This document shows positions 7,111 through 64,000 of a stretch of 64,000 nucleotides of DNA, one piece after another. The stretch's first letter is position 1. Each line of letters begins with the position of its first letter. The position numbers and the translations under genes are program-made. Where the stretch lies: NCBI GenBank assembly GCA_944390735.1, contig CALXRL010000014.1, positions 1,441-65,440 of the forward strand, given 5' to 3'. Below the pieces are notes generated by a model. That model was given only the letters and a program-made list of their open reading frames with translations, ran no database searches and had not been told where the DNA came from. Origin of the DNA: an uncultured Victivallales bacterium (lineage in GTDB: Bacteria; Verrucomicrobiota; Lentisphaeria; Victivallales; UBA1829).

Positions 7111-7118
7111 CAAAAAAG

Positions 7119-14402: not shown

Positions 14403-14430
14403 GGATCGGCCAAATTGCGTTTTCTTCAAA

Positions 14431-14444
14431 ATGTAACTGTTTAC
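14431..14444. promoter_or_regulatory. LacI/CcpA-type operator-like inverted repeat TGTAACTGTTTACA
   Basis: aaTGTAA-CTGT-TTACAtt (7-bp arms with flanks) lies between the TATAAT box and the LacI start. It resembles the TGTAAACGTTTACA consensus. Confidence 0.55.
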
Positions 14445-14450
14445 ATTTTT

Positions 14451-14478
14451 AATTATAACAGAATTTCAAAAAAAAACA
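14451..14478 (-). promoter_or_regulatory. Candidate promoter of the LacI-pseudopilin-esterase-GH29 operon
   Basis: Minus strand reads TTGTTT-16-TATAAT, immediately upstream of the operator-like repeat. Confidence 0.45.
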
Positions 14479-14554
14479 AGAGGGGGAAACGGATTTTTCC
14501 GGAAAAAATCCCGGGGGAGGGAAAAAGAAAGGGGACGGGAGGGAATGGAACGAA

Positions 14555-16442: not shown

Positions 16443-17255
16443 ATGAGAATGCGCGCCTTTCCTGTGAAAAACTTCACTCTTGTAGAGCTCCTTGTTGTCA
16501 TTTCGGTTATTGCGATTCTGACCTCCCTTCTTCTTCCCGCCCTGAACAGTGCGAGGGAGAAGGCCGCCGCAATCGTCTGTTCCGGCAATTTGAAACAGAC
16601 GGGCGTCGGATTGATGATGTATGCCGGAGACCATGAGGACTATCTGCCCAATCTTCTTCAGGGAGTGGACTGCATGTTCACCGACTCCATCGCCGTTTAT
16701 GTCAACAGTTCCTACGCGGTGAAGACCACATTCACGGGAACGGGCACGTGGGGATATTTCATCAATTATGCGCCTTCGCACTACATTTACACGGCCAAAT
16801 CCGTGTTTGTCTGTCCGACGGCCGCGGGGAATCTGCGGGAGCCCTTCACCGGAGAAGCGGGAACGTTTTTTGTTTCGAACTACTCGGTGACGCGCTGCGA
16901 TAACGTTCCCGGCACGGTCTGCCGTCCCTATGCCTGGTGGCAGTACAGCGGGCAGACCAATGAAAAACCGAATGGAAGACGGATCAACGACATCAAAGGA
17001 CGGGTTCTTGTCGGGGAACAGCGCTATTATCAGGCGGCCAGTTCCATGACGCGCAAGGTCAATGTCACCCGTCTCGGTTCCGTTTACTGCTGGAGCGGCG
17101 CCTATGCGGTCAACAGCGAATGGGCATCCGGCAATGTGCATGGCGGCGGACTCTCCGGAAACTGGCTGTACAGGGATGGTCATGTTTCCAGTCACAAATT
17201 CAATCCGCAGCTCATCCACCGATCCGGAACCTCCGCCTATTTCATGGGATTTTGA
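16443..17255 (+). CDS. Prepilin-type N-terminal cleavage/methylation domain protein, DUF1559-like pseudopilin paralog
   Basis: [41 protein letters not shown] and C-terminal [20 protein letters not shown] lies 9 nt upstream of ATG 16443; the track ORF starts at 16425. Confidence 0.85.
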
Positions 17256-17271
17256 AAGAAAGGATTTTGGA

Positions 17272-20200: not shown

Positions 20201-21228
20201 GCAATGTGCTGCCGCATATCATCGGACAGAACGATCCGGTGTGGATCGGCGATTTCGGACGGGCGCGTCTGGTTTCCGGCGTCTACGACCGGGAAAAACG
20301 GCATGTGCGGATCGAACTGACCTCCTCCCGTCCGGATACGCTGACGGTCGTTTCGATGGTCAAACCGCTCCGCATTCTCCGGAACGGAACGCCGCTTGCA
20401 ATCCGGCGCGGCGACTGGGAGTTCGCCTATGAGATCCCGCTTCCCGAGGGAAACAACGCCGTCGAGCTTTTCCTTCCGGAATTCCGGGTGGAGGAGTATC
20501 CGTTTCCGAAGCGGGGAAAGCCGTCGCCGGTGCAGAATCTGGCAAAGGCGCCAAAGCCGCAGAAACTGCAGCGGTCATCCGCCCTTCCGTCCGAATTCAA
20601 AGTCGGGCCGGTGACGATGCTGGATCTTGCGCCGTTCTGCAACCTGGGATTTTCCGATTCTCCTGAAAACATGGTGCGCAAGGAGTTCTGGAAGTTTCCG
20701 AAGAAGGATGTCATTCGCGGAGTCCCGTTCCGCTTCACGGATCCCGCCGTCAACGGGGGAAAAAGCATGATTGCCCTGCGGGGACGTTACCGGAAGACGC
20801 TTCCTTTGCTCGTCCGCTCCATTCCGGTGAACAAGGTGCCGAAACGGATCTTCTTTCTCCACGGCATGTGTTACAATGCGGACAATGGAAAGGTGGTGAC
20901 CTATCGTCTGAACTTCGCCGACGGACAGACCCGGGAGATCGCGATCTATGCCGGGATCGGAACCGGCGAATGGAAGGTCGCACCCGGAGGAACGCATCTG
21001 ACGGAAGTGCCGTTTGCTCTGACGGGCAAGGTTTATCCTCCCGTCCGGGAAGGACAGTGGGGCGAGGGGGCGGGAGGATATCTCTTCGTCTGGAACAATG
21101 ATGTCCGTTCGCTCGGTGTGACCAATCAGGATGTCGATCAGCGAAGTCCGGCCTGTGTGAAGTCGATTGATCTGATTTCCGCGGACCGTTCGGTTCCGCT
21201 TCTGTTCGCGATCACGGTGGAGGAGTAG
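17272..21228 (+). CDS. Very large secreted protein (1318 aa), no family recognised
   Basis: MKRQITVLFFSAVLLLSAGP signal at ATG 17272. Balanced amino-acid composition throughout, unlike the R/G/P-rich antisense ORF 17764..20304. Last gene of the AraC-divergent operon. Confidence 0.8.
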   Translation: MKRQITVLFFSAVLLLSAGPTQETTDFIATIQLGQHLLERKLVAPHFSPIQRHFPDAVKKIFAMSPEAARRELEAFEDVMLQLSARCTGQPYSPNVGWNTKKRAADYEKNLQETHDDWKYNSRSLARFGLKADAEFEWKRLQELRGEAPRLKTLPVDPRFDRAFSFYKQIAEERFRLGGQIILFENELDALLRTAEFRQSLGGAEKKLSAAPIRALLKQWRSFYNQKNYLRCADLEEKTAEKIAELKKLVFASDGKTPDVRPGTSFLSTGIFGFGGNWQVLLNTNARYGSLYLSRENEFRMYENSKFDWEVSFDAENATCSRYELDGGSWTYAKRKNIYRNSVTGKEEIIDVYWSVLAPGVLFDAHGKAVSVVESSLGVPVAPDAVAGVFDGKVRLIPQGNPIPSRRMSEGWLLLLWNGNPAPKLPVLLFFEQAPDQLEWGGGGFRIARSPEVGKYAAATLYGAVAQKPDFGGNWKTLPADVLKQCRAVARHLAFYPLDADEFFAFGKNGSVRIWNKIRKAVRLDGNWTAKAPAYVPFPPAYTLSADVRPDQPLSEPLMATRFGFYRTVPGEVISYSLSAPDLLERFVLKPVSGEERYLKQLNDTILAHRGGNAWDNFVRDRRSGQVLELAAGFCMLSGEARDVLNQQRLPDQLELSITGEMSISGARELDGRSRLPDYLIEPNTGRSAFLGGWRGRNQGGAGSGRGDMTLFNQQPLFHAFGQAVLFGRWDLVERYWTRLKDLYSAVDFNQPWQTPGMNTLTSGLILYGDMYGDGFRCYNLMYRLARGMGDEELAARARYLAAKQTATTINFLSPNVIAYNAHVKNIPAASAPDSAIGQLGISQYGFRTAPWKPYAKDAWNAPFQTVGCTNDYPFYGILLRYCYPDSKLWLDTFAKAIPEWHDPVYLYEQRGERVNNAWNYLKYMAWSSRDRRAVRALYETAFPADYSRTKPLFSFRGKMWEALYRRLHMNEWFQRGNVLPHIIGQNDPVWIGDFGRARLVSGVYDREKRHVRIELTSSRPDTLTVVSMVKPLRILRNGTPLAIRRGDWEFAYEIPLPEGNNAVELFLPEFRVEEYPFPKRGKPSPVQNLAKAPKPQKLQRSSALPSEFKVGPVTMLDLAPFCNLGFSDSPENMVRKEFWKFPKKDVIRGVPFRFTDPAVNGGKSMIALRGRYRKTLPLLVRSIPVNKVPKRIFFLHGMCYNADNGKVVTYRLNFADGQTREIAIYAGIGTGEWKVAPGGTHLTEVPFALTGKVYPPVREGQWGEGAGGYLFVWNNDVRSLGVTNQDVDQRSPACVKSIDLISADRSVPLLFAITVEE

Positions 21229-50485: not shown

Positions 50486-50572
50486 AAGACGGCGCGGAAG
50501 CGTCCCTTGTCCCGTGGAAATTACAATTTGGCAATCCGGGGGATTTTTCTCTTTTCCGAGGGGGAGGACGGC

Positions 50573-50601
50573 TTGCTTTTTCCCGTCCGGTATGGTATAT
50601 G
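50573..50601 (+). promoter_or_regulatory. Candidate sigma70 promoter of the Bat-like operon
   Basis: TTGCTT-tttcccgtccggtatgg(17)-TATATG, 27 nt upstream of ATG 50629. GGGAGGA RBS. Confidence 0.5.
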
Positions 50602-50628
50602 TAGCAGGGAAATCCGGGAGGAAGCAAT

Positions 50629-52521
50629 ATGAAATATCTGATCGCGGTTCTGCTGCTGCCGGCGGCATTGAACCTTTTTGCGGCGCGTCTCTTCACCAGG
50701 GAGATTACGATCGGAGGGGAGGGGAAGGAGGAACGGTCCGCCGCATTGACCTTTTTTGTTCCGGATCGCGTTGCCGGATACCGCCTGGTGGATCATGGCG
50801 GATCGGTCCGTCCGATGACGGTCATCGGCAGGGAAGGGGGAAAAATTGATGCGTTTTTCAATGCCCGTCCCGGCGAAAAGCTGATTCTGGAGTATCACGA
50901 TTCGCCCGTGCAGTCGCCTGCGGCGGAACAGAAATCCGGATTGCTGCATCTTTACAAGGAGTTCAAAGGTGAAGCCGTTCATTCCCTGCAACAGTTTCAA
51001 CGGCTCTGGCGCAATTCGCTTCGCATGCGCGCCGGATGGGAGAAGCGCCTTTATCTCGGAGGAAACAAGCTCGGGAACGCCCGGCATTCGCTGAATCTGT
51101 ACCGGGGATTCATCCGAATCAGCCGGCCGGGGCGCTACACCTTTCATACCGCTTCGACCGACGCCTCCTTTCTGCTGATCGACGGTAAGGAGATTGCCCG
51201 CTATCCGGGGAACCACTGGATCGGTCCCGCCCAGACCGGCCGTTTCAAAGGCGAGGTGGAGCTGAGCGCGGGACTTCATCGGATCGAATACTTTCATGCG
51301 AACAATCAGTGGAGTTATTTTGTGATTGCGGCCTGCAGCCGTCTGGGGGATCGGAAGATGACGATTCTCCCGGAGAAGATGTTTCTTCCGCTTCTGCCGG
51401 TGACGCAGGACCGTCTGAAAAACGAGGACGGATCCGACGCCGCCGATCTCTCCTGGAAACGGACCGGCACCATTGATCTCGACGGAAGACAGATGCAGGA
51501 ACTCACGTTTAGCAACGGGGAAATTCTCTACCGTTTTTCTCCGGGGACCTTTCACAAGAACGGCTATACGATCTACCTTGGCTATCACTTTGCCGCTCCG
51601 TTCGTTTCGGAGCAGGAGGGCCGCCGGATGCTTCTGGGCGCCATGAAGCAGGATGAGGTTCAGCCGCTGGACGCCACCGGCTACCGGTTTCTGGCCGACG
51701 CCATTCCGCAATTCAAAATGAAGGAGCTCTCCTCCCGTTTCTACGACCGCATTCTCTATTTCGGCGCCCGGATGCCGAAGGATGCCGTGTTCAAGTTCTA
51801 CCGGACCATGATGATGGATGATGATCTGGCGGCGGAACGCTATGAAAAGATCGAAAAGGATCTGAACCGGATGCTGAATCAGAGTTCGGATCACGCGCGT
51901 CTGGAACTTTCGCGCCTTCTTTTTTACTGCATGGACCGCCGGAAGGAGGCGGAGGTGGAGTTCCGGAAGATCCAACCGGAAAAGCTGACCGCCGATTTCC
52001 GACGCAACTACCGGATTCTGGAAGCCGATATGGCTCTGTTTTTCAAAGGATATGACGCGGCGCTGGAGCTCTACCGGAAGATGGAATCGGTCTCCCGGAA
52101 GATGTCCGAGCGGGAGAAACTGGAGGCGGACGGCAATCTGGTCAGTCTCCGCAACGCTCTCGTCACCCGACGCTACCGCGATGCGACCGATTATCTTGCG
52201 CGTGTGGAAAACGCCCGGCCGGAGATTCGGCTGAATCCCGAGATCATGTGGCTGAAGTCTCAATTTCTGGCGAAGCAGGGACGGGTTCGTCTTGCCGCCT
52301 ACTGGGCAGAGGCCGTGCGGAAGCTTCAGCCCTCCTCCGGAACGGATGCCGCCGCGACGCTTTTCCTGGCGCGCGATCTGCTGCGCAGAGGGAAAACGGA
52401 TCGTGCGCATCCGCTTCTGAAAGAGATTGCCGCGCGCTATCCGAAGTCGATGGAGGCGATCGCTGCCGAAAAACTGCTTTCCGGCCGGACCGTGACACCG
52501 GGAAGAAAAGAAAGGAATTGA
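50629..52521 (+). CDS. Secreted PA14-like + TPR protein, first gene of the Bat-like operon
   Basis: Signal MKYLIAVLLLPAALNLFA. PA14-like RPGRYTFHTASTDASFLLIDGKEIARYPG...VELSAGLHRIEYFH. The C-terminal helical repeats look TPR-like. Confidence 0.7.
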   Translation: MKYLIAVLLLPAALNLFAARLFTREITIGGEGKEERSAALTFFVPDRVAGYRLVDHGGSVRPMTVIGREGGKIDAFFNARPGEKLILEYHDSPVQSPAAEQKSGLLHLYKEFKGEAVHSLQQFQRLWRNSLRMRAGWEKRLYLGGNKLGNARHSLNLYRGFIRISRPGRYTFHTASTDASFLLIDGKEIARYPGNHWIGPAQTGRFKGEVELSAGLHRIEYFHANNQWSYFVIAACSRLGDRKMTILPEKMFLPLLPVTQDRLKNEDGSDAADLSWKRTGTIDLDGRQMQELTFSNGEILYRFSPGTFHKNGYTIYLGYHFAAPFVSEQEGRRMLLGAMKQDEVQPLDATGYRFLADAIPQFKMKELSSRFYDRILYFGARMPKDAVFKFYRTMMMDDDLAAERYEKIEKDLNRMLNQSSDHARLELSRLLFYCMDRRKEAEVEFRKIQPEKLTADFRRNYRILEADMALFFKGYDAALELYRKMESVSRKMSEREKLEADGNLVSLRNALVTRRYRDATDYLARVENARPEIRLNPEIMWLKSQFLAKQGRVRLAAYWAEAVRKLQPSSGTDAAATLFLARDLLRRGKTDRAHPLLKEIAARYPKSMEAIAAEKLLSGRTVTPGRKERN

Positions 52522-54035
52522 TGATGAAAGTGATGTTTCCCTTGTTCTGCATCGGCGTTCTGTGTCTTTCCTCCGTGTTTGCGGATGAGAACGATTATCT
52601 GCGTCCGATCGGCCGTCCCCGGGAGGCGCGTGCGCAGCGCCGTCAGGGAGGAGAGGCGTTTCCGCCGCTGCCGCTGCCGGTGACGCCGCTGCGGAGATCG
52701 GAGAAGAAGCGGCCGCCGTCGCCGTCGGCTCTGATCGGGAAAGTCGTCTGGGGCGGCTACCTGGACTACACCGGAGCCGACGGCATGACGCAGCGCCTTT
52801 TCGACTGGAACATGGTTCCCGCCGACTGCCAGATGCTGCTGCGCCGCGTCAAGGAGACTCTGCGTCTGGAATACAAGACGCAGACAGTCGATCTGGCCAC
52901 CTTCAGCGGGGATCCGTCCGAACTGCCGATTCTCCATTTTTCCGGCGGACGCACCATCCGATTCACCGACGCCGAACGGGTCAAACTGCGGAAATATCTG
53001 CTCGACGGAGGAACGATTCTGTTTGACTCCATTGTCGGTTCCCCCTACTTCTACCGGGGGGCGATGGAGGAGACCAGACGGATTCTGCCCGAGTCGCCCG
53101 TTCGGAGAATCGATCCCGACCATGCGGTGTTCCGGATGGTCCGGAACACCACGTCGGAAAAGATCAACGGCAACCGCACGATTGCCCCCGAACTGGACGG
53201 AGCCTACATCGGTTCGCGTCTTGCGGTGATTCTTTCGCCCTTCGGTCTCGGGTGCGGATGGGACAACATTCAGCCGGATGCGATCCGCAATTCCAGATAC
53301 TATCTGCCCGACAGCGCCCGGGAGCTCGGCGTCAATCTGATCGCCTATGTTATCGGCTGGTATGAAAACGGTCAGGCGTATGCGGCGGGCGAAGCCGTCA
53401 GCGAAGCTCCGGAGGTCCGTTCCGCCGACCGGATCGTGTTTGCCCAGGTGAAAACCAGCGGGCTCTGGAATTCCGATCCGGGCGCGGAAACCCGGTTCAT
53501 GCGCTATCTGGCAAAGAATCTGAATCTGGATGCGGGAAGCAGTCCGGTCTATGTGGATCCGGCGACCGCGGTTCTGGCCGATTATCCGTTTCTGTACCTG
53601 AGCGGCATCGGGAATTTCGATCTTTCCGCCGAAGCCATGGCAAAACTGCGCGGATACCTCAATGGAGGCGGATTCCTTCTGATAAACAACTCTTTGGGAA
53701 TGAATGAGTTTGATGCGGCGGCGCAGAAGTTTGCCTCGACGCTCTGTCCGGAAGCGAAACTGGAGAGGATTCCGGAAAACCATCCGATTTTCACAAAAGG
53801 ACCGTTCCGTTTCACGCGGAACGGGTTTCTGGATGCGGCGGCGCGGAAGTATCCGGCATCGTCGCGGCCCCTGCTGTACGGGGTGCGGGACGGCGACCGC
53901 TACAAGCTGATATACAGTCCGGTGGATCTGGCGGGCGGCTGGATGTCCGTCTCCCGGCCTGGAAGCGTCGGGTATGAGACGGAAACGGCTCTGCGACTCG
54001 GGGCAAACCTTGTCGTTTACTTTACAACCCATTGA
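52521..54035 (+). CDS. Secreted protein with two DUF4159-like domains
   Basis: Signal MMKVMFPLFCIGVLCLSSVFA. Two copies of the pattern: PILHFSGGRTIRFTDAERVKLRKYLLDGGTILFDS and PFLYLSGIGNFDLSAEAMAKLRGYLNGGGFLLINNS. The start overlaps the upstream stop (TGATG). Confidence 0.7.
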   Translation: MMKVMFPLFCIGVLCLSSVFADENDYLRPIGRPREARAQRRQGGEAFPPLPLPVTPLRRSEKKRPPSPSALIGKVVWGGYLDYTGADGMTQRLFDWNMVPADCQMLLRRVKETLRLEYKTQTVDLATFSGDPSELPILHFSGGRTIRFTDAERVKLRKYLLDGGTILFDSIVGSPYFYRGAMEETRRILPESPVRRIDPDHAVFRMVRNTTSEKINGNRTIAPELDGAYIGSRLAVILSPFGLGCGWDNIQPDAIRNSRYYLPDSARELGVNLIAYVIGWYENGQAYAAGEAVSEAPEVRSADRIVFAQVKTSGLWNSDPGAETRFMRYLAKNLNLDAGSSPVYVDPATAVLADYPFLYLSGIGNFDLSAEAMAKLRGYLNGGGFLLINNSLGMNEFDAAAQKFASTLCPEAKLERIPENHPIFTKGPFRFTRNGFLDAAARKYPASSRPLLYGVRDGDRYKLIYSPVDLAGGWMSVSRPGSVGYETETALRLGANLVVYFTTH

Positions 54036-54058
54036 TTTTCAAAAACAAGGACGATTTC

Positions 54059-55066
54059 ATGGAGTACGATGACAGAAATCTGATGAAAGACATTGCCGTT
54101 CTGCGTGACGGCTTTGACTCGGTCCGCCGAGAACTGGCCAGAGTGATTGTCGGTCAGGACCGGGTTGTCGAGAAGGTTCTTTCCGCCATGCTGGCGGGAG
54201 GGCATTGTCTGCTGCTGGGGGTTCCGGGACTGGCGAAGACGCTGCTGGTCTCCACGCTGGGACAGGTGCTTGACCTGGGATTCAAACGCATTCAGTTCAC
54301 TCCCGACCTGATGCCCTCCGACATCACCGGCACCGAGATTCTCGACGAGGCCGCCGCAGGCGTCAAACGGGAACTCCGGTTTGTCAAAGGTCCGGTTTTC
54401 ACCAATCTCCTTCTTGCCGATGAAATCAACCGCACGCCCCCGAAAACGCAGGCGGCCATGCTGGAGGCCATGCAGGAAAAGAGCGTCACAAGCGGAGGGA
54501 AGTGCTATCCGCTTCCGACCCCGTTCTTTGTTCTGGCGACCCAGAATCCGATTGAGCAGGAGGGAACCTATCCGCTGCCGGAAGCCCAGCTCGACCGTTT
54601 TATGTTTCTGGTGAAACTGGACTATCCGGAGCGGGAACAGGAGATTGAAATTCTCTCGAAGACGACCGGGAACCGCACCGTGGTGCCGGAGAAGGTGCTG
54701 AACGGCGATTCGCTGCTGTTCTTTCAGATGGTGGTTCGCGCACTGCCCGTGAGCAGACATGTGATCTCCTATTGTGCGGATCTTGCGCGTCTGTCGCGGC
54801 CGGAGAATCCGGAGTCGCCCGAGTTCATCCGGCAGAATCTTTCCTACGGGGCGGGACCGCGCGCCGGACAGTATCTGATGCTTGCGGCAAAAGCCGCCGC
54901 CGCGCTTGACGGACGCGTGAACGTCTGCTGTGAGGACGTCCGCAGATCGGCGCACGAGGTGCTCCGCCACCGGATGGCGTGCAACTTCCACGCGGCCGGA
55001 GAAAACCTGACCACCGATGCTCTGATCGACATGCTCCTTCAGACGGTCCCGGAGCCGCGGAACTGA
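54059..55066 (+). CDS. MoxR-family AAA+ ATPase
   Basis: VIVGQDRVVEKVLSAMLAGGHCLLLGVPGLAKT (Walker A), LLADEINRTPPKTQAAMLEAMQE (Walker B/sensor), ATQNPIEQEGTYPLPEAQLDRF. An alternative TTG start at 54032 overlaps the upstream stop. Confidence 0.9.
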   Translation: MEYDDRNLMKDIAVLRDGFDSVRRELARVIVGQDRVVEKVLSAMLAGGHCLLLGVPGLAKTLLVSTLGQVLDLGFKRIQFTPDLMPSDITGTEILDEAAAGVKRELRFVKGPVFTNLLLADEINRTPPKTQAAMLEAMQEKSVTSGGKCYPLPTPFFVLATQNPIEQEGTYPLPEAQLDRFMFLVKLDYPEREQEIEILSKTTGNRTVVPEKVLNGDSLLFFQMVVRALPVSRHVISYCADLARLSRPENPESPEFIRQNLSYGAGPRAGQYLMLAAKAAAALDGRVNVCCEDVRRSAHEVLRHRMACNFHAAGENLTTDALIDMLLQTVPEPRN

Positions 55067-55067
55067 G

Positions 55068-55976
55068 ATGTCCGACAGCCGCTTTACCTATCTGCCCGCC
55101 GAAACGCTCGATTCCCTGAAACACATCGAGCTGGTTGCGCGTTCCCTTGTGGAGGGGGGAATGCTGGGTCTGCATCGCTCCCCGTTCCGGGGCTTCTCCT
55201 CGGAGTTCGCCGAATACCGGAAATACTCTCCCGGCGACAGTGTCAAATACATCGACTGGAAAACCTACGCCCGTTCCGACCGCTACTACATCAAATGCTT
55301 TGAAGAGGAGACCAATCTCCGAAGCTATATTCTTCTGGACACCTCCGGTTCCATGGCGATGTCCGCGTCGGACGGTCGGCGGACTCCCTCCAAGTTTCAT
55401 TATGCGTGCTACTTTGCCGCTGCGTTTCTGTATCTGGCTCATCAGCAGCGGGATGCGCAGGCGCTATTCACCTGGAGCGATGTTCCAGGCGAATGTTCCG
55501 CCTGTTCCAATTCGGCGGCGAATCTGGCGGCGAATCTGCGGCGTCTGGAATCGCTGAAACCGGAGGGCGTTTCCCATGCGGCATATTCGCTTTCCCGGAT
55601 CGCGGAGCGGATCCCGCGCCGTTCGCTGGTCGTGGTGTTTTCGGACTTTCTGGAGCGGGATCTCTCGTTTCTGCGTTCGCTCCACCAGCTGACGTTCAAG
55701 CGCTGCGAAGTGATCCTGTTTCAGATCCTGAACGAAGACGAACTGCACTTCCCGTATCGCGGACTCATCCGGTTCCAGGATATGGAGACCGGCGAGTTCA
55801 TGGAACTGGAAGGCGAAGCGTGCCGTTCGAGCTATCTCTCCGCGCTGCACCGTTACAACGCCGCGCTGAAAAACTTCTGCGACCAGTACAAAATCACCAT
55901 GGAGACGCTGACCACCGCCGATCCGTTTGAACGGGCGCTGGCCGCGTACTTCTCCAAACGGGAGGTGCTGTTCTGA
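55068..55976 (+). CDS. DUF58 protein (vWA-like, MoxR partner)
   Basis: GLHRSPFRGFSSEFAEYRKYSPGDSVKYIDWKTYARSDRYYIKCFEEE and ILLDTSGSM. Confidence 0.85.
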   Translation: MSDSRFTYLPAETLDSLKHIELVARSLVEGGMLGLHRSPFRGFSSEFAEYRKYSPGDSVKYIDWKTYARSDRYYIKCFEEETNLRSYILLDTSGSMAMSASDGRRTPSKFHYACYFAAAFLYLAHQQRDAQALFTWSDVPGECSACSNSAANLAANLRRLESLKPEGVSHAAYSLSRIAERIPRRSLVVVFSDFLERDLSFLRSLHQLTFKRCEVILFQILNEDELHFPYRGLIRFQDMETGEFMELEGEACRSSYLSALHRYNAALKNFCDQYKITMETLTTADPFERALAAYFSKREVLF

Positions 55977-58003
55977 TGGAGTTTTCCTCGCCCGCGTTTC
56001 TGTTTGCGCTTCCGCTGGCGCTGGCGCCGCTGATCCTGCATCTGTTCTACCGCAGAAGGCGATCGACGGTGCTGTTTTCCTCGTTGAATTTTTTTCTTCG
56101 GCAGGAGAAATATTTTGCCTATCGCCGCCGTCTGCTGGAGATTTTTCTGATGCTCTGCCGGATTCTGGGGGTGGCGCTGATCGTGCTGGCGCTGGCGGGG
56201 CCGTATTTCAGAAAGATCACGTTTCTCGCGAACGGGGGAACGGAGGCGGTGATCGTGCTTGACGACTCCATGTCGATGCAGCGCACCGTTCCCGGCGGAC
56301 ACACGGCGTTCGAGCTTGCCGTGCGTCAGGCGGAGGGACTGCTCAACGTTCTGAACCGGGAGGATTCCGCCGGTCTGGTGTTCCTTTCCGGACGGCCCGG
56401 AATGGAACTCACGCGGGAAAAGCAGAAGGTGGTTTCCGCGCTTCGCGGGGCGAAGGTGACCGGGAGCGCGGGCAACCTGACATCGGCCGTCCGGCAGGCC
56501 GTCGAACTTCTGAAGGGAACGCAGGGAATCAATCGCGAAATCTATCTGCTGACCGATCTCCAGGAAAGCATGCTGCCGAAACGGAAGATCCGTCTTTCCG
56601 ACTGGAAGAACGGACATCTGTTCGTGATCCCGATTTCGGGATCGAACGCGAATGCGTCGATCTCGGGCGGCCCTCCCGATCCATCGCTGAAAACGCCGGG
56701 TTCGAGTGTTTATCTGCCGTTTACGATCCGCAATTCGAGTCCGCGCAGCCGGACGTTCAAGGCGACGCTGAACATTACGGGAAATCCGGTGCAGTCGAAA
56801 ACCATTTCCGTCAAGGCGGATTCCTCGGTGAACGAGCATTTCATATATGTCCCCGTCCGGCCGGGACGCGTGGTCGGGACGATCACCATTGACGATTCCG
56901 ATATTCCGCTTGACAATACGCTTCCGTTCTCGTTTTCCGTTTCGGATCTGATGAATGTTCTTCTTCTCTCCGGAGGGGAGGGCGTGGATCCCTTCTATTA
57001 TCTTCGTCTGGCGGTGAAACCGACTCCCCGTGCGTACGGGATCAAATTTGATTCCGCTTCGTTCCGGACGACGGGCATCGGCGATTGGAAGCGTTACAGC
57101 CTTATTTTTCTCTCCCCCGGGAGCGCGGTCCATACGGATACCGCCGACCGTCTTCTGGAGTATCTGCGTTCCGGCGGAACCGTTGCCGCACTGCCGGAAA
57201 CGGATGGCTCGACCCGGTTCTATTCCGTTCTTGCGGAGCGTTCCCGCGGTCTGCTGCCCGCGATCTACGGTCCGGTCGGCGAGACAACCGCGACCGGAAT
57301 CCTGTTCGACGGGGCTCTGGCCTCTCTGAACGATCTTCTTCAGCTGAACCTTCTGCGCTGGCGGAAGCTGGCGGGCCTTCAGGTCCGCTCCGCCACGCTT
57401 CTTGCCCGCAGCGGATTCCGTCCCGTGATTTCGGAATATCCGTGCGGTTCCGGGAGGGTCATTGCGCTGGCGTTCGATCTCCGCCGCCGCTTTTCCAACT
57501 GGCCTGAACTGAAATCGTTTCCGGTTGTGATGAACGCGCTGGTCAACTACGCCGCCGGAAGAAAGAACCGGACCATCGCGCTCTCCTGCGGCGGAACGGT
57601 CCGCGTGGAGGAGAAGACGATCACCTACACCGACTCCCGGGGAACGTCCGGACCGATCCCCGACGGGATTTTCCGCGAGACCCTGTTTCCCGGCATTGTG
57701 TTTTTTTCCGGCGGACCTTATGAAGCGGCCGTTCTCACTCCGCCTCCGCGGGAGAGCCTTTTACACGGGGTTCCGCTTGCGGAGATGAAACGCTGCTTTG
57801 ACTCTCCCGTCACACTGCTTTCCCCGGGCGAGGAGCCGGAACTTCAGATCGCGCGTCTGCGCCGGGGAACCGATCTTTCGGGCGCGGCTCTGCTGGCCGC
57901 ACTGATCCTTCTTACGGTGGAATTCCTGCTGGGTTCCGGTCTTTCCGGATTCTTCCGGAAGCAGGAGGGAACGGAGAAGGGAGGGCCGTCTCATGCGATT
58001 TGA
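55976..58003 (+). CDS. BatA_N double-TM + vWA domain membrane protein
   Basis: MEFSSPAFLFALPLALAPLILHLFYRRRR (aerotolerance-regulator N-terminal type), MIDAS VIVLDDSMSM, and a C-terminal TM. The start overlaps the DUF58 stop. Confidence 0.8.
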   Translation: MEFSSPAFLFALPLALAPLILHLFYRRRRSTVLFSSLNFFLRQEKYFAYRRRLLEIFLMLCRILGVALIVLALAGPYFRKITFLANGGTEAVIVLDDSMSMQRTVPGGHTAFELAVRQAEGLLNVLNREDSAGLVFLSGRPGMELTREKQKVVSALRGAKVTGSAGNLTSAVRQAVELLKGTQGINREIYLLTDLQESMLPKRKIRLSDWKNGHLFVIPISGSNANASISGGPPDPSLKTPGSSVYLPFTIRNSSPRSRTFKATLNITGNPVQSKTISVKADSSVNEHFIYVPVRPGRVVGTITIDDSDIPLDNTLPFSFSVSDLMNVLLLSGGEGVDPFYYLRLAVKPTPRAYGIKFDSASFRTTGIGDWKRYSLIFLSPGSAVHTDTADRLLEYLRSGGTVAALPETDGSTRFYSVLAERSRGLLPAIYGPVGETTATGILFDGALASLNDLLQLNLLRWRKLAGLQVRSATLLARSGFRPVISEYPCGSGRVIALAFDLRRRFSNWPELKSFPVVMNALVNYAAGRKNRTIALSCGGTVRVEEKTITYTDSRGTSGPIPDGIFRETLFPGIVFFSGGPYEAAVLTPPPRESLLHGVPLAEMKRCFDSPVTLLSPGEEPELQIARLRRGTDLSGAALLAALILLTVEFLLGSGLSGFFRKQEGTEKGGPSHAI

Positions 58004-60071
58004 TCCGCTGCTGCCCTATCTGCTGATTCTGTCGGCGGGGGTGGTCTGTCTGGGGGCTGTCTGGTGGGCGAACCGGACGTCATGCCGAAAACGGGTGCTG
58101 GGAATTCTGCGTCTCTGTTCGCTTTCGCTTCTGGTGCTGATGCTTCTGTCGCCCGGGGTGCGTCTGCGTCAGACGGATCTGAGTTCCTCCAGTCTGATTT
58201 TTCTTCTTGACGGATCCGCCTCGATGTCCGCCACCGACATGCCCGGCCGCATCAGCCGTTATTCGGCCGCCCGGTCTGCCCTTCAGCGTCTTCTGGACGA
58301 CTCCTTCGACGGCTGCCGGAAGTATGTCTATCTGTTCAACCATCGGACCGTTCCAGCGGACGATCCCGGGCAGACGGAACTGTTCTCCCCCTTCGGCAAC
58401 ACCGATCTGAAACTGGCCGTGGATACGGCGGACCGCGATCTGGGACTCTCCTCCGCCGCGGCTCTGGTGATTTTGACCGATGGTCTGGATCATTCCGATT
58501 TCCGGGGGCTCTCCTCCGGGGTTCCCGTGTTCGCGGTCCGGACCGGGAGCGATCTGGAGCATGTGCCCGATCTGCGCATCGACTCCTTCCGCTCGCCATC
58601 CGCTCTGCGCGCAGGAGAGGAGCTGGAACTGAAGATTCCCGTTTCGCTGCGGGGAGCGGGTGGTGCGGTTCGGGTGCAACTGAATTTCACCGTCGACGGC
58701 AAAGCCTCGGGCGGCGAATCGTTTGACCTCGCCCCCGGTGAGCGCAGGGAGATCCCGTTCCGGACCTCCTTTGCGAAACCCGGACTGCATGAGATCCGTC
58801 TGGAGCTGAACCGCCTTTCGGATGAGGCGTCGTTCCTGAACAATACAAGGGAACTGATGATTGAAGTGCGGGAAGATGATCTCTCTCCGGTTCTCTACTT
58901 TCCGGTTCTGACCAACACCTTTCGTCCGCTCACGCGTCTCTTCCGCCAGACGGGACGGAAATTCACGGCGGTCTACCAGCTTCGCAAAGGCGTGTTTCAG
59001 GTGATCGGAAACTCTCCGGAACGCACCTGCGACAGGGGCATTCCGTCGGATCCCGGAGCCATGAAATCGACCGATCTTCTCTTCCTCGGTTCAGGCTGCG
59101 CCGAAGACTATTCGGATGCGGAGATCCGCTCCATGGAACAGTATGTCTCCAACGGAGGCGTTCTGCTGATTTACGGCGGACCGGGCGCATTCGGAAGCGG
59201 AAAAAACCACCTTTTTTCCGCGATGCTTCCGGTCCGGAGCGCGCAGAGCCGTTTCACGGATGCCGTTTTCCGTCTGAAATCCGCGGAGAATCCGCTTTTC
59301 GGCGATCTGCTGAAGGAACCGCTTTCCATCCGGGGACTGAATCTGGTCGACCACGTCAAATCGGGTGCGGAGATCCTGTTGAACGCGGTCGGTGACAAAA
59401 CCTATCCGCTGGTGGTCTCCATGCCGTACGGACGCGGCAAAGTGATTGCCGTTCTCACCAACAGTCTGCACCGGATCGGTTCGCCGGAGAAGCGGCCCCG
59501 TTATTTCCGCACGTTCTGGGAGAATCTTCTGGTTCATGCGGGGGAGGGGATCGGCGAACGGCTGGAGATCTCCGCGCCGCGCCAGATCCCGGAGGGAGGA
59601 ACGCTGACCGTCACGGCCTCTGCGGACCGGACGCTTTCCGCGGAGGCGTTCCTGCTTCCGGCAAATGCGCCTTCCGACCGGTCCCGACGGCGGAAAGTGA
59701 GTTTTCAGGGCCGTCTCGGAACCGCTGTTTTTTCGGATCTCCCGGCGGGGAAATACATTCTGGAGGTCCGGGCGGAGGATCCGAAATCCGGAGTGCTTCG
59801 GCGCTACCTTCCCGTCTACGTCGGGGAGAGCGCCGCGGAAAACGACGATCTCAAGGTTTCCGACGACCATTTCATGCGATTCACCACTCACGGCCGCGTC
59901 TATCTGCCTGAGGAGACCGATCGTCTGCGTTCCGATCTCCACGCCCTTCTTCGCAGAACCTCCGTCGATCACGAATGGCACCCCGTATTCGACACTCCGT
60001 TCTTTCTGATCGCCCTTTTCCTGCTCCTCATGACCGAATGGTTCCTGAGGCGGAGATACAATCTGTTCTAA
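57993..60071 (+). CDS. Membrane vWA protein with CARDB/Ig-like and GATase1-like regions
   Basis: N-terminal TMs, MIDAS IFLLDGSASMSATD, GGVLLIYGGPGAF, and a C-terminal TM FFLIALFLLLMTEWFLRRRYNLF. 11-nt overlap with the upstream gene. Confidence 0.75.
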   Translation: MRFDPLLPYLLILSAGVVCLGAVWWANRTSCRKRVLGILRLCSLSLLVLMLLSPGVRLRQTDLSSSSLIFLLDGSASMSATDMPGRISRYSAARSALQRLLDDSFDGCRKYVYLFNHRTVPADDPGQTELFSPFGNTDLKLAVDTADRDLGLSSAAALVILTDGLDHSDFRGLSSGVPVFAVRTGSDLEHVPDLRIDSFRSPSALRAGEELELKIPVSLRGAGGAVRVQLNFTVDGKASGGESFDLAPGERREIPFRTSFAKPGLHEIRLELNRLSDEASFLNNTRELMIEVREDDLSPVLYFPVLTNTFRPLTRLFRQTGRKFTAVYQLRKGVFQVIGNSPERTCDRGIPSDPGAMKSTDLLFLGSGCAEDYSDAEIRSMEQYVSNGGVLLIYGGPGAFGSGKNHLFSAMLPVRSAQSRFTDAVFRLKSAENPLFGDLLKEPLSIRGLNLVDHVKSGAEILLNAVGDKTYPLVVSMPYGRGKVIAVLTNSLHRIGSPEKRPRYFRTFWENLLVHAGEGIGERLEISAPRQIPEGGTLTVTASADRTLSAEAFLLPANAPSDRSRRRKVSFQGRLGTAVFSDLPAGKYILEVRAEDPKSGVLRRYLPVYVGESAAENDDLKVSDDHFMRFTTHGRVYLPEETDRLRSDLHALLRRTSVDHEWHPVFDTPFFLIALFLLLMTEWFLRRRYNLF

Positions 60072-60084
60072 AGGAGATGAAATC

Positions 60085-61137
60085 ATGCTGAAACTTCTGT
60101 TTTTTCTTCTGTCCGTTCCGCTGTTTGCCGCGACTTCCGCGGATGCGGTCATCACCTTTTCCGACGGCTCCACGGTATCCGGGCGCCTCTCTCTGATGGG
60201 ATCGCGCCCGATCACCATCCATCTTCAGAAGGACAAACGCGCCAGAGAACGGAAAATCGAACTCTCCGACATCGTTCTTCTGACTCAGAAACTCGAAAAA
60301 GCCACCATGGAGCGCCCCTGGATGTACCGGGAATCCGGCAAAACCGACAAGGTCTATCTCGACGGTTCATATCCGCTTCTTCAGTTTGAAACCGAACTTC
60401 TTCTCATCAGCGGCGAGGTTCTTCGCGGACATCTGATTTCCATTCCGTTCCGCTTCCGGGGCGGCGGACGCTCCAAACTCTTTCTGAATCGTCAGATCAA
60501 AGGGAAAAACGGTCAGAAAATCGAGGATCTCACCTACGTGGTAAAAGTCTCGTTTCCCCGGCATATTCCCCGTTCGGCCGGAACCATTTCCGGGACTCTC
60601 TCCGGATTCGGAGCCCTCCGCGAGGCCGCCGCCGTGGACCGCCTCCGGCATGTGGTTCTGAATGCGGAAATTCAGGGAGACCGCTTCCGCTTTTCCAATC
60701 TGCTCCCCGGAAAATATGATCTTTTCCTCCGCACGGAGAATGCGGTGCTGGCCGGGTTCTCCGGCACCGACCGTTTCCCGGAAGTCCTTGAAAAGAACTT
60801 CCGTCTTGCCGATGACTTCTTTCCTCAGCGTCATCTTCTGCTGCTTGACGGCACCCGCACGCTGGTCTACAAGCGCCGTTCGGATTTTCACGCGGCGGAA
60901 AAACACGTCCGCGGAGGTTTTCTCTGGCATCTGGAGATCTGGAACTGGCATGTCGCGGGCAATGAATGGAAACTGGATTCCCGCGATCTTCCCCTCCGCC
61001 ACATGCAGCAGGGCGGAGAATCCAACTGTTCCCTCTACCGGATCCCTCTTCTGAACGGCGTCTCTTCCGACGCATCCGCCCCTCTCACCATCCGCAAGGA
61101 GACATCCGATCATGAATTTATCCGAATCCTTGACTGA
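60085..61137 (+). CDS. Secreted hypothetical protein (350 aa), possible CarboxypepD_reg-like beta-sandwich
   Basis: AAGGAG RBS, signal MLKLLFFLLSVPLFAATSA, and FRFSNLLPGKYDLFLR. Confidence 0.65.
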   Translation: MLKLLFFLLSVPLFAATSADAVITFSDGSTVSGRLSLMGSRPITIHLQKDKRARERKIELSDIVLLTQKLEKATMERPWMYRESGKTDKVYLDGSYPLLQFETELLLISGEVLRGHLISIPFRFRGGGRSKLFLNRQIKGKNGQKIEDLTYVVKVSFPRHIPRSAGTISGTLSGFGALREAAAVDRLRHVVLNAEIQGDRFRFSNLLPGKYDLFLRTENAVLAGFSGTDRFPEVLEKNFRLADDFFPQRHLLLLDGTRTLVYKRRSDFHAAEKHVRGGFLWHLEIWNWHVAGNEWKLDSRDLPLRHMQQGGESNCSLYRIPLLNGVSSDASAPLTIRKETSDHEFIRILD

Positions 61138-64000
61138 ACTGCGCCGCAGCCGCGGCCGTCGTTTCTGGAGCATCGCCCTGTTTCACCTCTGCTCCGGGGA
61201 TCTCGCCGCGGTGCTGCTGCTGTTTGTGCTGGACAATCTTTCCGGATTTTCGCGGGAGTCCCGAATTCTCCTTCTGACGCTGTTTGCCGCGGGAAATCTG
61301 GTGTTTCTGACCCTTCTGATCCGGAAGGCACTCTCTCTCCGCCGATCCGACCGGGAGGATGCCGTGGAGCTCGAATCGCTCAACGGCATTCGGGACAATG
61401 CGCTGGTCAATGCCGTCTGCTTTCAGAACGATGCAGCTCTTCCCGCGCATCTGTCCGCCTATTTCTCCGAACGAGCCGATGCCTGCTGCGCTTCGATCCG
61501 CATTCCTCGCGCCTCGTCCGATCCGCGTTTCCGGAAATCGCTTCTCGGGTTCGGACTTTTCTGCGCGGTCGCACTTCTGTATCTGATCGCGTTCCGGGCC
61601 TATGCGCTGAACGCCTTTCAGCGGTTTGCAAATCCGGCGTCCGGTACGGCGTCGCTGAACTTCCCTTCGTTTGAGGTCGATCCCGGCAGCTGCCGCGTCC
61701 CGCACGGGGACAGCCTGACCATCCGGGCAAGAGCCTTCTCCAATGGACGGGAACTCTCGGATCTGAAACTTCTCATCGAAAATGGGAATCCTCCCGTGCT
61801 CTATCCGCTGGAAAACGGAGCGTTTCTTCTGAAACAGCTCACAAGAACGCTCACGTACCGGATCCGTTCCGGACGGGATTCCAGTGAACGATTCACCATC
61901 GAAGTCGTGGATCCGCCGCCCGTGCCGGAGTTCCGCATGACCGTCGTTCCGCCCGCCTCCACCGGACTCTCCCGGGAAGAGCTCACTCCGGGACAGCCGT
62001 TCCGTCATTCCGTTCCGGCAGGCAGTCTTGTCACCCTCCGCTGCGGAGGCATCCGGCCGCGTCTTTTCGTCAATGACAGGGAGCAGCCGATGGACACCCC
62101 GTTCCCTGTCCGGCAGACTCTTTCTCTGCGCATCTCCCTCCAGAACGCCGAAGGGCTTCTGTTCCGGAACGCCTGGTCCGGAGAACTCCAGAGCGTTCCG
62201 GATCGTCCTCCGGAGGTGCGTTTCCTCAATGAAAAGACAAATCTGGAAGCCGGATACGGCGAACGCATCCCGATTCGCATCTCCGCTTCGGACGATTACG
62301 GGATCGTCTCCCTCCGCTTGACCGCCGAGGTCGAAGGCCGGACCATCCCTCTCAAAGAATACCGGTATCCTTTCCCCGGAGCCCGTGTGAGAAATGAGAT
62401 CTTCCTTCTGAAAATCTCGCCGAATCTGCTTCCGGAAGGCGGTACAATAGAACTCAAAACGACAGCAGAAGACACAAAACATCAGAAAACGACAACTTCT
62501 TCCACCATTACCATTCACCATCTGGATCTGACTGCGGCGCTGAAGGAGAAACTGGCCTCAGGCGACGCCTCCCGCTGTTACGAGCATCTGTTCACCGCCT
62601 TTCGCGAGCAGACCTCCGTCCGGGACCGGATCTCGCTTCAGCTGAAAAATTTTCCCGCCCGGGAACGCGGACGGCTCTATCAGGACCAGACCCGGATCGA
62701 CAAACACATTCAGAACGCCGAGCGCGAAGGGGAAAAAGCCAACCTTCCCGCCCCCTTCCGGCTTGCGCTGAAACGTCTTTCCTCCGATTCCAATCTTCTT
62801 CTGAACGAGGTCAACGACATGCGGAAAGCTCCTTCCTCCCGGAAAATCAACACCATCGTTCTGAAGCAGACCGCCCTGATTGAAAAACTGCGGAAAATGC
62901 TCGGCGCTCTCGCCCTTCGTCAGCGGAACGAGGAGACCCGAAAGAAAAACGCCCGCGAAAACGACGCGGAAAAAGAGCTCTATGAACAGATGAAAGAGTG
63001 GAAAAAACAGCTTGAACGCTTCCGGACCGAACAGCGCAAAATCAAGTCCGATACCGAAGCCTTCGATCTGAAGAAGACCGATGACTGGAGCGAAGGCGAG
63101 GAAAAACTTCTGGGCGACCTCGCCGCCAGGGAACAGGACTGGGCTCAGTTCTTCAAAGCGGCCTTCTCCGATCTCTCCAAAAAACAGAATCAGGATTTTT
63201 CCAATTCCACCATGGCAGATGAATTCATCGAGCTCTACGAAGAGCTTCAGAAGGCGGGAAATGCTCTGAAATCGAAAAAAATTGAAATCGCAACCGTGGC
63301 GGAGGATACCGCCCTGGTCGGGGCGGAAAACGTGATCGCGAACCTCGAACGCTGGCTCTCCGACAAGCAGGATTACATCAAGTGGATCGCCGAGGAGGAC
63401 GGAAATTCCCAGGATGTCAAGCTCACCGATCTTCCGGCGGAGCTCACCGACATCATCGGCGATCTCATCGAACAGGAGGAGGAACTCTCCGAAGACACCA
63501 GCGACAGCACCAACTCCTTCTCCTATGACAGTGACGACGGACTCGGATGGGGCGTTTCCGACGGCAATATCGACAGCATGCAGGCCAAAGGCATCACCGG
63601 CAATGTCCTTCCCAACAACAACGAGGTCGGCGGCCGTTCCGGCGAGGGCCGTTCCGGACGATCCTCCGGACAGTTCGTGGAAAAGGAAGCCGGCGGAAAA
63701 GGCGGAAGAAAAACACCGACCCGCCTTGTCCAGTCCCCGTTTGAAAAAGGAACCGTCGTCGACAAGTCCAGGGATCCCCAGGGTGGCGCTTCCGGAGGAG
63801 GAAAGCAGTCCGGCGTCGGCGACGAGGGACTCAGCGGCGTCACCCCGGATCAGGACCCCGCAACCGGCGTCCGGCTCGCCGGAAATCAGGCGGAACTCCG
63901 GCAGCGGACCGAAGCCATGCTGAAACGTCTCGATGCCGCCAATCTGCCCGCCGCCGATCTGCGCGACGCTCTCGAAAAAATGCGCGCCCTCGATCGAATC
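61112..64000 (+). CDS. Very large membrane-anchored protein (>963 aa), DUF4175-like; 3' end outside the window
   Basis: Absent from the ORF track (no stop). ATG 61112 gives MNLSESLTELRRSRGRRFWSIALFHLCSGDLAAVLLLFVLDNLSG...LLLTLFAAGNLVFLTLLI (TM hairpin). 963 uninterrupted codons follow, including Ig-like stretches, coiled-coil K/E-rich segments and a G/S/D-rich low-complexity region. 26-nt overlap with the upstream gene. Confidence 0.75.
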   Translation, partial: MNLSESLTELRRSRGRRFWSIALFHLCSGDLAAVLLLFVLDNLSGFSRESRILLLTLFAAGNLVFLTLLIRKALSLRRSDREDAVELESLNGIRDNALVNAVCFQNDAALPAHLSAYFSERADACCASIRIPRASSDPRFRKSLLGFGLFCAVALLYLIAFRAYALNAFQRFANPASGTASLNFPSFEVDPGSCRVPHGDSLTIRARAFSNGRELSDLKLLIENGNPPVLYPLENGAFLLKQLTRTLTYRIRSGRDSSERFTIEVVDPPPVPEFRMTVVPPASTGLSREELTPGQPFRHSVPAGSLVTLRCGGIRPRLFVNDREQPMDTPFPVRQTLSLRISLQNAEGLLFRNAWSGELQSVPDRPPEVRFLNEKTNLEAGYGERIPIRISASDDYGIVSLRLTAEVEGRTIPLKEYRYPFPGARVRNEIFLLKISPNLLPEGGTIELKTTAEDTKHQKTTTSSTITIHHLDLTAALKEKLASGDASRCYEHLFTAFREQTSVRDRISLQLKNFPARERGRLYQDQTRIDKHIQNAEREGEKANLPAPFRLALKRLSSDSNLLLNEVNDMRKAPSSRKINTIVLKQTALIEKLRKMLGALALRQRNEETRKKNARENDAEKELYEQMKEWKKQLERFRTEQRKIKSDTEAFDLKKTDDWSEGEEKLLGDLAAREQDWAQFFKAAFSDLSKKQNQDFSNSTMADEFIELYEELQKAGNALKSKKIEIATVAEDTALVGAENVIANLERWLSDKQDYIKWIAEEDGNSQDVKLTDLPAELTDIIGDLIEQEEELSEDTSDSTNSFSYDSDDGLGWGVSDGNIDSMQAKGITGNVLPNNNEVGGRSGEGRSGRSSGQFVEKEAGGKGGRKTPTRLVQSPFEKGTVVDKSRDPQGGASGGGKQSGVGDEGLSGVTPDQDPATGVRLAGNQAELRQRTEAMLKRLDAANLPAADLRDALEKMRALDRI

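Follow-up and report, generated by a model that had tools for sequence, protein, structure and literature searches.

The subject of this analysis is an operon at the end of a 64,000-nucleotide (nt) stretch of DNA from an uncultured Victivallales bacterium (contig CALXRL010000014.1; the whole stretch is hereafter called the window), in which a MoxR-type AAA+ ATPase and a DUF58 protein are encoded together with two membrane proteins carrying von Willebrand factor A (VWA) domains and with several large proteins predicted to lie outside the cytoplasm. From position 50629 to the end of the window, open reading frames (ORFs) on the plus strand follow one another in one unbroken, tightly packed series. 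An earlier note on this DNA, made from the letters alone, had described them as an operon of eight genes, and re-reading the sequence returned the same genes in the same order and with the same junctions. The features of the region are the following (lengths in amino acids, aa):

50518-50537, plus strand: 20-mer AAATTACAATTTGGCAATCC, in the 143-nt gap 5' of g1, 36 nt upstream of the -35 hexamer
50573-50601, plus strand: promoter-like element TTGCTT-17 nt-TATATG, read from the sequence, with a TG two bases upstream of the -10 hexamer
50629-52521, plus strand: g1, 630 aa, first gene of the operon
52521-54035, plus strand: g2, 504 aa, TGATG overlap with g1 at 52521
54059-55066, plus strand: g3, 23-nt gap after g2
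55068-55976, plus strand: g4, 1-nt gap after g3
55976-58003, plus strand: g5, TGATG overlap with g4
57993-60071, plus strand: g6, 11-nt overlap with g5
60085-61137, plus strand: g7, 350 aa, 13-nt gap after g6
61112-64000, plus strand: g8, 26-nt overlap with g7, first 963 of 1040 aa, runs off the window

All eight genes of the earlier description are present in the window, but the operon has nine, because a near-identical contig, L001 (26 substitutions in 13,916 nt, no indels, 99.8% identical), completes g8 at 1040 aa and shows a further gene, g9, of 212 aa, which has a 4-nt overlap with the g8 stop, with a convergent gene beyond it. The complete operon comprises about 14.2 kb. Its g7 protein is present on 13 metagenomic contigs. 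For g3 we used the ATG at 54059, following the call on L001; an alternative TTG start at 54032 makes the gene overlap g2. Shine-Dalgarno motifs of the GGAG/AGGA type precede all starts by 5-10 nt. The overlapping stop and start codons point to translational coupling and not to stoichiometry, and the stoichiometric co-translation that had been read from them does not follow.

The sole sizeable non-coding gap is the 143 nt 5' of g1. The promoter-like element lies there as previously described and is nearly invariant in two related species despite diverged flanks; it is absent from the list returned by our consensus scan because the sixth base of its -10 hexamer is a G, where the scan requires a T. 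The 20-mer upstream of it is identical in the window and in loci L007 and L008, while its flanks differ and the proteins of these three species are only ~75-85% identical, and we regard it as a possible regulatory site, that is, a candidate operator. A sigma-54 reading of the 20-mer was dropped, there being no TTGC element at the right spacing. Internal promoters or terminators, which had been named as grounds for doubting a single operon, were not in excess: the scan of the operon gave 4 promoter-like matches (3.3 +/- 2.0 in shuffled sequence) and 22 terminator-like matches (17.6 +/- 3.8 in shuffled sequence).

All products were scanned against the Pfam and NCBIfam libraries, and scores were compared with the family cut-offs. 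The g3 product matches AAA_3 with 207.9 bits (cut-off 27) and AAA_lid_2 with 54.8 bits, and its Walker A (GVPGLAKT) and Walker B (LLADEINR) motifs are kept in all aligned orthologs. A DUF58 gene, the neighbour expected of a MoxR ATPase, begins 1 nt past its stop: g4 reaches 139.3 bits for DUF58 (PF01882; cut-off 23.4) and 29.1 bits for VWA_2, and residues D91, S93 and S95 of its metal-ion-dependent adhesion site (MIDAS), DTSGS, are kept in 28-29 of 29 sequences. The MoxR and DUF58 assignments of the earlier note are thus both far above threshold. Neither a signal peptide nor a transmembrane segment was found in g3 or g4 by hydrophobic-segment analysis; both proteins are predicted to be cytoplasmic, and g4 would provide the only cytoplasmic vWA/MIDAS domain among the operon products.

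The two genes that follow encode membrane-anchored VWA proteins. For g5, the BatA_N plus vWA assignment exceeds the cut-offs in both libraries (BatA_N PF07584, 51.3 bits against 25.9; TIGR02226, 54.0 against 23.05; VWA_2, 46.0 bits). The protein consists of the BatA_N double-transmembrane hairpin, a VWA domain with the motif DDSMS, a CARDB-like immunoglobulin (Ig) domain, a further region assigned to the periplasm and a C-terminal transmembrane helix, and orthologs match BatA in 13 of 13 cases, VWA_2 in 11 and CARDB in eight. Taken alone, g6 gives weak matches (VWA_2, 20.6 bits; CARDB, 20.9; GATase1_like, 18.2); its 12 orthologs match VWA_2 throughout, GATase1_like in 11 cases (best E 1e-7), DUF4350 in eight, CARDB in six and ThuA in four. 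The order in g6 is two N-terminal transmembrane helices, VWA, CARDB-like Ig, GATase1-like/ThuA-like and Ig-like domains, and a C-terminal transmembrane helix, in keeping with the vWA domain and C-terminal anchor recognised before. Its MIDAS, DGSAS, occupies residues 73-77, with D73, S75 and S77 invariant, T137 nearly invariant and D163 invariant. The DxSxS motifs of g4 and g6 and the DxS/TxS motif of g5 are kept in essentially all orthologs.

Both g5 and g6 begin with two transmembrane helices around a Lys/Arg-rich loop and have a third helix at the C-terminus, which in g6 is directly followed by a conserved RRR. The positive-inside rule, applied to this N-out hairpin and its basic loop, assigns the bodies of the two proteins (~570 aa), including both VWA domains, to the periplasm. 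The loop between the two g5 helices appears to fit the BatA_N/TIGR02226 pattern, and the periplasmic topology predicted for g6 is further favoured by g2, which shares the fold class of the g6 GATase1-like domain and has a signal peptide. In Borrelia, the BatA-type homolog BB0173 has been demonstrated experimentally to be an inner-membrane protein with three transmembrane helices and a VWA domain facing the periplasm (PMC5700661). Given that MoxR lacks a signal peptide or transmembrane segment and is predicted to be cytoplasmic, while the g5 and g6 VWA domains are predicted to be periplasmic, the ATPase should be unable to touch their MIDAS sites, which argues against the earlier suggestion that it remodels the assembly through vWA MIDAS contacts. 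An outer-surface assembly, also considered in the note, is unlikely, since the inner membrane holds g5 and g6 at both of their ends and g8 through its three N-terminal transmembrane helices.

Direct scans failed to classify g8: there was no match to Pfam DUF4175 even at E<=10 and none in NCBIfam, and of its relatives only 1 of 21 and 1 of 40 in two samples match PF13779 and none matches TIGR02302. A profile of its N-terminal 470 residues, searched against a database of 5.8 billion sequences, retrieved three PF13779 proteins (E 1.9e-18, 4.8e-6 and 1.1e-4), one of which is named at its source as a TIGR02302 family protein. By hhalign, the Ig-like core aligns with DUF4175/TIGR02302 at 98.7% (E 2.4e-16), sharing the motifs PPAYTG and DxPPxV...A.DDYGL, and the full-length protein at 99.1% (E 7.4e-19) over 604 collinear columns. 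Because these profile methods agree where the direct scans fail, g8 is, as judged by profile comparison, a divergent DUF4175/TIGR02302 homolog that the curated models miss; the DUF4175-like label given to it before stands as remote homology and not as a direct Pfam or NCBIfam match. Like other DUF4175/TIGR02302 proteins (Rhodobacter RSP_0730; the N-terminal region of Acinetobacter AdvA), which have been tied to envelope and division regulons (PMC9275681, PMC7481262), g8 combines N-terminal transmembrane helices, Ig-like modules, helices and a Gly/Arg-rich C-terminus. It differs from them in escaping the curated models (Pfam misses g8 and 38 of 40 sampled relatives, and NCBIfam misses all of them), in being 200 aa longer, and in a near-invariant Gly-rich sequence of its own. 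The family is large, with 15,853 representatives at E<=1e-3 and 1,497 at E<=1e-30, among them ~1,200-aa proteins of Akkermansiaceae and Verrucomicrobiales, and has a mean identity of 23%.

The AlphaFold (AF2) model of g8 (pLDDT 71, pTM 0.35) suggests the following layout:

g8 residues 1-173: helices, including three transmembrane segments
g8 residues 186-470: three Ig-like domains
g8 residues 473-803: long helices, ~330 aa
g8 residues 789-917: stretch with pLDDT ~30, followed by C-terminal helices

The sequence predicts a basic N-terminus, two transmembrane helices, a cytoplasmic segment of ~70 aa in which A84, E88, N96 and N100 are nearly invariant, a third transmembrane helix and ~880 periplasmic residues, so that g8, like g5 and g6, would be an inner-membrane protein with a very large periplasmic part. 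Residues ~801-912 (window 63512-63847) form a Gly/Arg-rich segment, GLGWGVSDGN...GGRSGEGRSGRSSGQFVEKEA...GGASGGGKQSG, which is found in the same region on L001 and shows the highest conservation in the family (column agreement 0.68-0.73, compared with 0.25-0.45 elsewhere); its folding may depend on oligomerisation or on a binding partner. Foldseek with the low-pTM model matched nothing more specific than strings of Ig domains, and the family sequence profile found nothing under E 0.07 in the PDB. A tblastn search of plasmids gave no match for g8 and a single one, a Corynebacterium DUF4159 gene, for g2.

The remaining products, g1, g2, g7 and g9, have signal-like hydrophobic N-termini and are predicted to be secreted. 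In g1, a PA14-like domain (residues ~159-226) is joined to TPRs (~509-615) that include a weak YbgF-like match (E 2.3e-7). The PA14/TPR assignment made earlier is supported at the level of the family, in which six of nine members match PA14 (best E 3.5e-10; 24.9 bits in the L064 homolog) and 6-7 of nine match TPR families, but in the window protein itself PA14 (PF07691) stays below its cut-off (18.5 bits against 24). The tandem DUF4159 protein was called correctly: g2 has two stretches of PF13709 (210.6 bits against 25.9, E 2.2e-62). For g7, described in the note as a secreted protein of no recognisable kind, direct scans likewise matched no Pfam or NCBIfam family. Its AlphaFold model is of high quality (pLDDT 89.2, pTM 0.81), all-beta and divided into three domains, and a Foldseek search of the PDB found no fold match (best E 0.13); g7 is thus predicted to adopt a new beta fold. 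Among its 86 homologs, all those with a named organism come from Lentisphaerota or from metagenome-assembled genomes (MAGs) labelled Kiritimatiellia/Verrucomicrobia. The g9 protein alone gives a weak match to CBM_4_9, a family of carbohydrate-binding modules (CBM) that is matched by five of 10 members of the g9 family (best E 2.1e-6).

Whether these accessory genes belong with MoxR is best judged from their company in other genomes. We scanned one genome per species and obtained 56 loci with a g7 relative, at which genes were mapped by tblastn and with hidden Markov models built from the orthologs. Nearly all loci belong to Lentisphaerota (Victivallales, Lentisphaerales) or to MAGs labelled Kiritimatiellia/Verrucomicrobia. 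In 16 loci from species-level Lentisphaerota genomes the nine genes are colinear, with g7 identity down to 38%. More broadly, g8 immediately follows g7 in 49 of 51 loci, g9 immediately follows g8 in 28 of 38, and g6 immediately precedes g7 in 28 of 42 informative loci. Outside this group the same families recur in other arrangements. Verrucomicrobiales (L066) and Akkermansiaceae (L070) have a compact g8-g1-g7'-FHA-MoxR unit, where g7' is a protein of 228-230 aa that matches the C-terminal two-thirds of g7; L064 and L065 begin with g8-, g1- and g7'-like genes, followed by a MoxR gene that runs off the contig end. The L071 cluster holds g2, g4, g5, g6, possibly g9 (a small protein whose N-terminal motif resembles that of g9), g8, g1, g7' and FHA-MoxR in permuted order, and in L068 genes for a DUF4175 protein, for a TPR protein and for a product of 1326 aa precede MoxR, DUF58 and BatA/VWA. 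The fusions with an N-terminal FHA domain are located as follows:

L066 16432-17778: FHA-MoxR fusion
L070 16310-17752: FHA-MoxR fusion
L071 18399-19760: FHA-MoxR fusion

FHA is a phosphothreonine-binding domain, which suggests that these MoxR proteins of Verrucomicrobiota are under Ser/Thr phosphorylation control; the MoxR of the window has no such domain.

The accessory genes are linked to MoxR, because several independent arrangements, the decisive ones outside Lentisphaerota, bring them together, and genetic linkage of these families extends over two phyla of the Planctomycetes-Verrucomicrobia-Chlamydiae (PVC) group. The earlier proposal, which made such synteny its test, is upheld on that point, as is its view that large extracytoplasmic proteins extend the core. 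That core is of the known MoxR(MRP)-DUF58-BatA_N/VWA kind; what is new is the conserved extension by g1, g2, g7, g8 and g9, which recurs in permuted form with FHA-MoxR in Verrucomicrobiota. In the incomplete set of literature that we searched, no description of the extended operon was found, although one may exist elsewhere; the same set contained nothing that links MoxR with Verrucomicrobia, Lentisphaerae or Kiritimatiellae, and mentioned DUF4159 only in the Pfam database paper.

Several further observations were made at these loci. A partial g7-like gene at L062 207-1415 lies in a bin labelled uncultured Alistipes sp., the sole non-PVC label among the 56 loci and probably a binning error. 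At L056 (CP091727.1, a long-read MAG; 687-14715) the complete operon is split into many short overlapping ORFs, most likely by frameshift errors of long-read assembly rather than by decay into pseudogenes. Inserted between the g8-like and g1-like genes of L071 (14704-15266) are a small ORF and the toxin-antitoxin pair MazE/PemK, and the genes for FtsW, MurG, a class A PBP and FtsH are found ~3 kb upstream of the L066 cluster (126-6827), a proximity that may be coincidence or may fit a role at the cell wall.

Taken together, we read the operon as a PVC-type member of the MoxR-DUF58-BatA/VWA envelope systems, encoding a periplasmic scaffold that is driven by MoxR and DUF58 and has a role in the envelope. 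We give this overall reading an even chance of being right, and place much less confidence in the individual protein contacts that it involves. In it, the seven extracytoplasmic proteins would come together at the periplasmic side of the inner membrane, and the contacts between them would be made by the MIDAS sites of g5 and g6, by the Ig-like and GATase1-like (DUF4159/ThuA-type) modules and by the long coiled coil of g8. The putative glycan-binding modules (PA14, CBM), like the TPRs, would point towards the cell wall or the outer membrane, and their presence suggests contact with the glycans there. On the cytoplasmic side, the MoxR hexamer might use DUF58 as its MIDAS adaptor and act on the only cytoplasmic handles of the scaffold, the g8 loop and the Arg-rich BatA_N loop of g5, and in this way drive assembly, or use ATP to switch conformation across the membrane. 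Of these handles, g8 is the likely transmembrane coupler, since in the four-gene verrucomicrobial unit it is the sole product besides MoxR with cytoplasmic segments.

The adaptor role follows the general logic of AAA+ ATPases and vWA proteins described for MoxR-vWA operons (PMC3495828). One of these, the three-gene MoxR-vWA(DUF58)-YebA-like transglutaminase operon of the same study, also pairs MoxR and vWA with a polytopic membrane protein near the membrane; it differs in that none of the nine products here has a transglutaminase-like peptidase domain. We would expect the physiological role to lie in envelope integrity or homeostasis and in stress tolerance, as in mutants of the Bat type and of the RL3499 type. 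The broadly conserved MoxR-DUF58 operon RL3499-RL3502 of Rhizobium leguminosarum, described by Vanderlinde and colleagues in 2011, reportedly encodes large membrane proteins and gives mutants with envelope and morphology defects; by analogy this is the phenotype that we would predict here, although that operon has four genes only. In RavA-ViaA, CbbQ-CbbO, NorQ-NorD and BchI-BchD, the target is recruited to an AAA+ hexamer by a vWA/MIDAS adaptor in the cytoplasm; DUF58 would serve as that adaptor here, whereas the presumed targets are membrane proteins with their bulk in the periplasm, and no soluble enzyme or metal-centre client is evident. Along with the Rhizobium defects, the envelope role is favoured by the heightened sensitivity of Riemerella batA and moxR mutants to oxidative and heat stress (PMC11834572) and by Rhodobacter, where the cell-envelope regulon of CenR includes a TIGR02302 gene as well as a MoxR gene as direct targets (PMC9275681).

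A number of points weigh against this interpretation. The g7-g9 genes stand apart from g1-g6 in 14 of the 42 informative Lentisphaerota/Kiritimatiellia loci, and TIGR02302 genes are solitary in Azospirillum and in L067; given the separated loci, the nine products need not form one particle. The charge pattern preceding the third transmembrane helix of g5 is ambiguous, the most conserved segment of g8 is the one without a confident model, and the PA14 and CBM calls are weak in the proteins of the window organism itself. Moreover, a study of Leptospira bat deletions reportedly states that Bat proteins had not been given any demonstrated specific function (PMC3557215), which counts against the envelope reading as well as against a Bat ortholog.

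Among the alternatives, the one that survives best is that the operon is a plain ortholog of the Bacteroides Bat operon, protecting an anaerobe against oxygen or oxidative stress, with the extra genes as lineage-specific passengers; we consider it unlikely. The likeness to Bat operons (Bacteroides fragilis BatI; Spirochaetes, Francisella, Riemerella) is considerable: an MRP-type AAA_3 MoxR, DUF58 and two membrane VWA proteins stand in the core order g3-g4-g5-g6, the first VWA protein has the BatA_N double-transmembrane hairpin, and a TPR protein is part of the cluster. BatA and BatB have ~330 aa each, whereas g5 and g6 have ~680 and bring additional CARDB-like and GATase1-like domains as well as a C-terminal anchor. 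MoxR is the third gene here and the first in Bat, and five further genes (g1, g2, g7, g8, g9) are present. No BatD, BatC or BatE family and no SH3 family was among the matches of any product at E<=0.01, in line with what the note had stated, and the only TPR protein is g1, encoded upstream of the core and fused to PA14. The NCBIfam BatA model NF047508 (VWA_BatA_Lepto) gives 16 bits against a cut-off of 380, a weak test, as the model is specific to Leptospira. The correspondence to Bat drawn earlier therefore holds for the MoxR-DUF58-VWA-VWA core and not for strict membership. A host from a gut anaerobe lineage would suit oxygen protection, as would the Riemerella phenotypes and the response of the Borrelia bat-like genes to oxygen (PMC5700661); yet the supposed passengers are the very genes most tightly linked to MoxR in Verrucomicrobiota.

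Somewhat more doubtful is the view that two independent units merely abut, a MoxR core of g1-g6 and a g7-g8-g9 periplasmic module with a function of its own. The separated loci are what speaks for it: in nine of the 14, no g1-g6 gene occurs within the fetched stretch, and the TIGR02302/DUF4175 genes inspected in Alphaproteobacteria are solitary and not adjacent to MoxR. The separation is, on the other hand, sometimes only a few kb (L021, L026, L051, L053), and in L032 and L040 MoxR is found ~6 kb downstream of g9, the genes between the two in L032 matching no Pfam family. In the window, g6 and g7 are 13 nt apart with no terminator between them, the two genes adjoin in the 28 loci counted above, and the verrucomicrobial clusters combine g8 and g7' with g1 and MoxR.

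It is improbable that the operon encodes an apparatus for glycan capture or adhesion in a polysaccharide-foraging gut bacterium, in which VWA, PA14 and CBM modules would mediate adhesion or bind substrates. In its favour, the PA14 and CBM_4_9 folds bind carbohydrates, VWA domains are frequent in adhesins, a GH2 gene lies elsewhere in the window, and in Borrelia the paralog BB0172 is exposed at the surface and binds integrin (PMC5700661). However, g5, g6 and g8 are predicted to be anchored in the inner membrane and hence not at the cell surface, the operon is also found in MAGs named for groundwater, lake, marine and bioreactor sources, and neither in nor beside it are there glycoside hydrolase, SusC/D-like or transporter genes. 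A MoxR-vWA conflict system for anti-phage defence or programmed cell death, as in multicellular bacteria, is very improbable: such ternary systems are reported to exist (PMC7159879, PMC8195603), and g3 does match the bpMoxR model (36.8 bits against a cut-off of 27), but AAA_3 is far ahead of that match, Pfam and NCBIfam scans find no beta-propeller or effector domain in any product or neighbour, including those beside g3 and g4, all partners are envelope proteins, and the cluster is colinear across the phylum and apparently vertical, unlike a variable island.

The envelope scaffold that we favour also has a bolder form, which we regard as a long shot: the nine proteins might form a trans-envelope machine, powered by ATP, that has so far gone unnoticed in PVC bacteria. 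MoxR would pull the g8 loop, the g8 coiled coil and Gly/Arg-rich segment would pass the work on to the periplasmic VWA/Ig/GATase1-like scaffold, and the scaffold would use its PA14, CBM and TPR modules to grip the cell wall or outer membrane. If true, this would be a Tol-Pal/TonB-like logic in which an AAA+ ATPase replaces the proton-motive force.

Elsewhere in the window, the genes upstream of the operon are unrelated to it (a topoisomerase, DUF2339, a periplasmic binding protein, an AP-endonuclease-like TIM barrel and a UDG-family protein), and neither tRNA nor Rfam elements were found in the 64 kb. Positions 2001-6000 have a G+C content of 0.49, compared with 0.55-0.60 elsewhere, and enclose a GH2-family glycosidase gene (2426-4891, minus strand). 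Four long ORFs have no Pfam match at E<=1e-4:

17062-21228, plus strand: ORF of 1388 aa
28133-31162, plus strand: ORF of 1009 aa
9529-11835, minus strand: ORF of 767 aa
41681-42967, plus strand: ORF of 428 aa

Given the G+C content, some of the long ORFs without a Pfam family may be shadow frames of genes on the opposite strand.

Few bacterial gene clusters without a known mechanism are as widespread as the MoxR-DUF58-VWA (Bat-type) operons, and since 1999 only stress and envelope phenotypes have been attached to them. The locus described here and its relatives provide a larger and sharply defined parts list, namely nine families found together in two PVC phyla, and they bring out a topological constraint that the usual picture of MoxR remodelling VWA proteins overlooks: MoxR and DUF58 are predicted to reside in the cytoplasm, while the other two MIDAS sites and nearly all of the remaining mass would be in the periplasm. 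This constraint makes two short cytoplasmic loops, that of g8 and that of BatA_N, the likely points at which energy or a signal is transferred. Finally, the g8-related family, with more than 15,000 representatives largely missed by Pfam and NCBIfam, is now given a genomic context.

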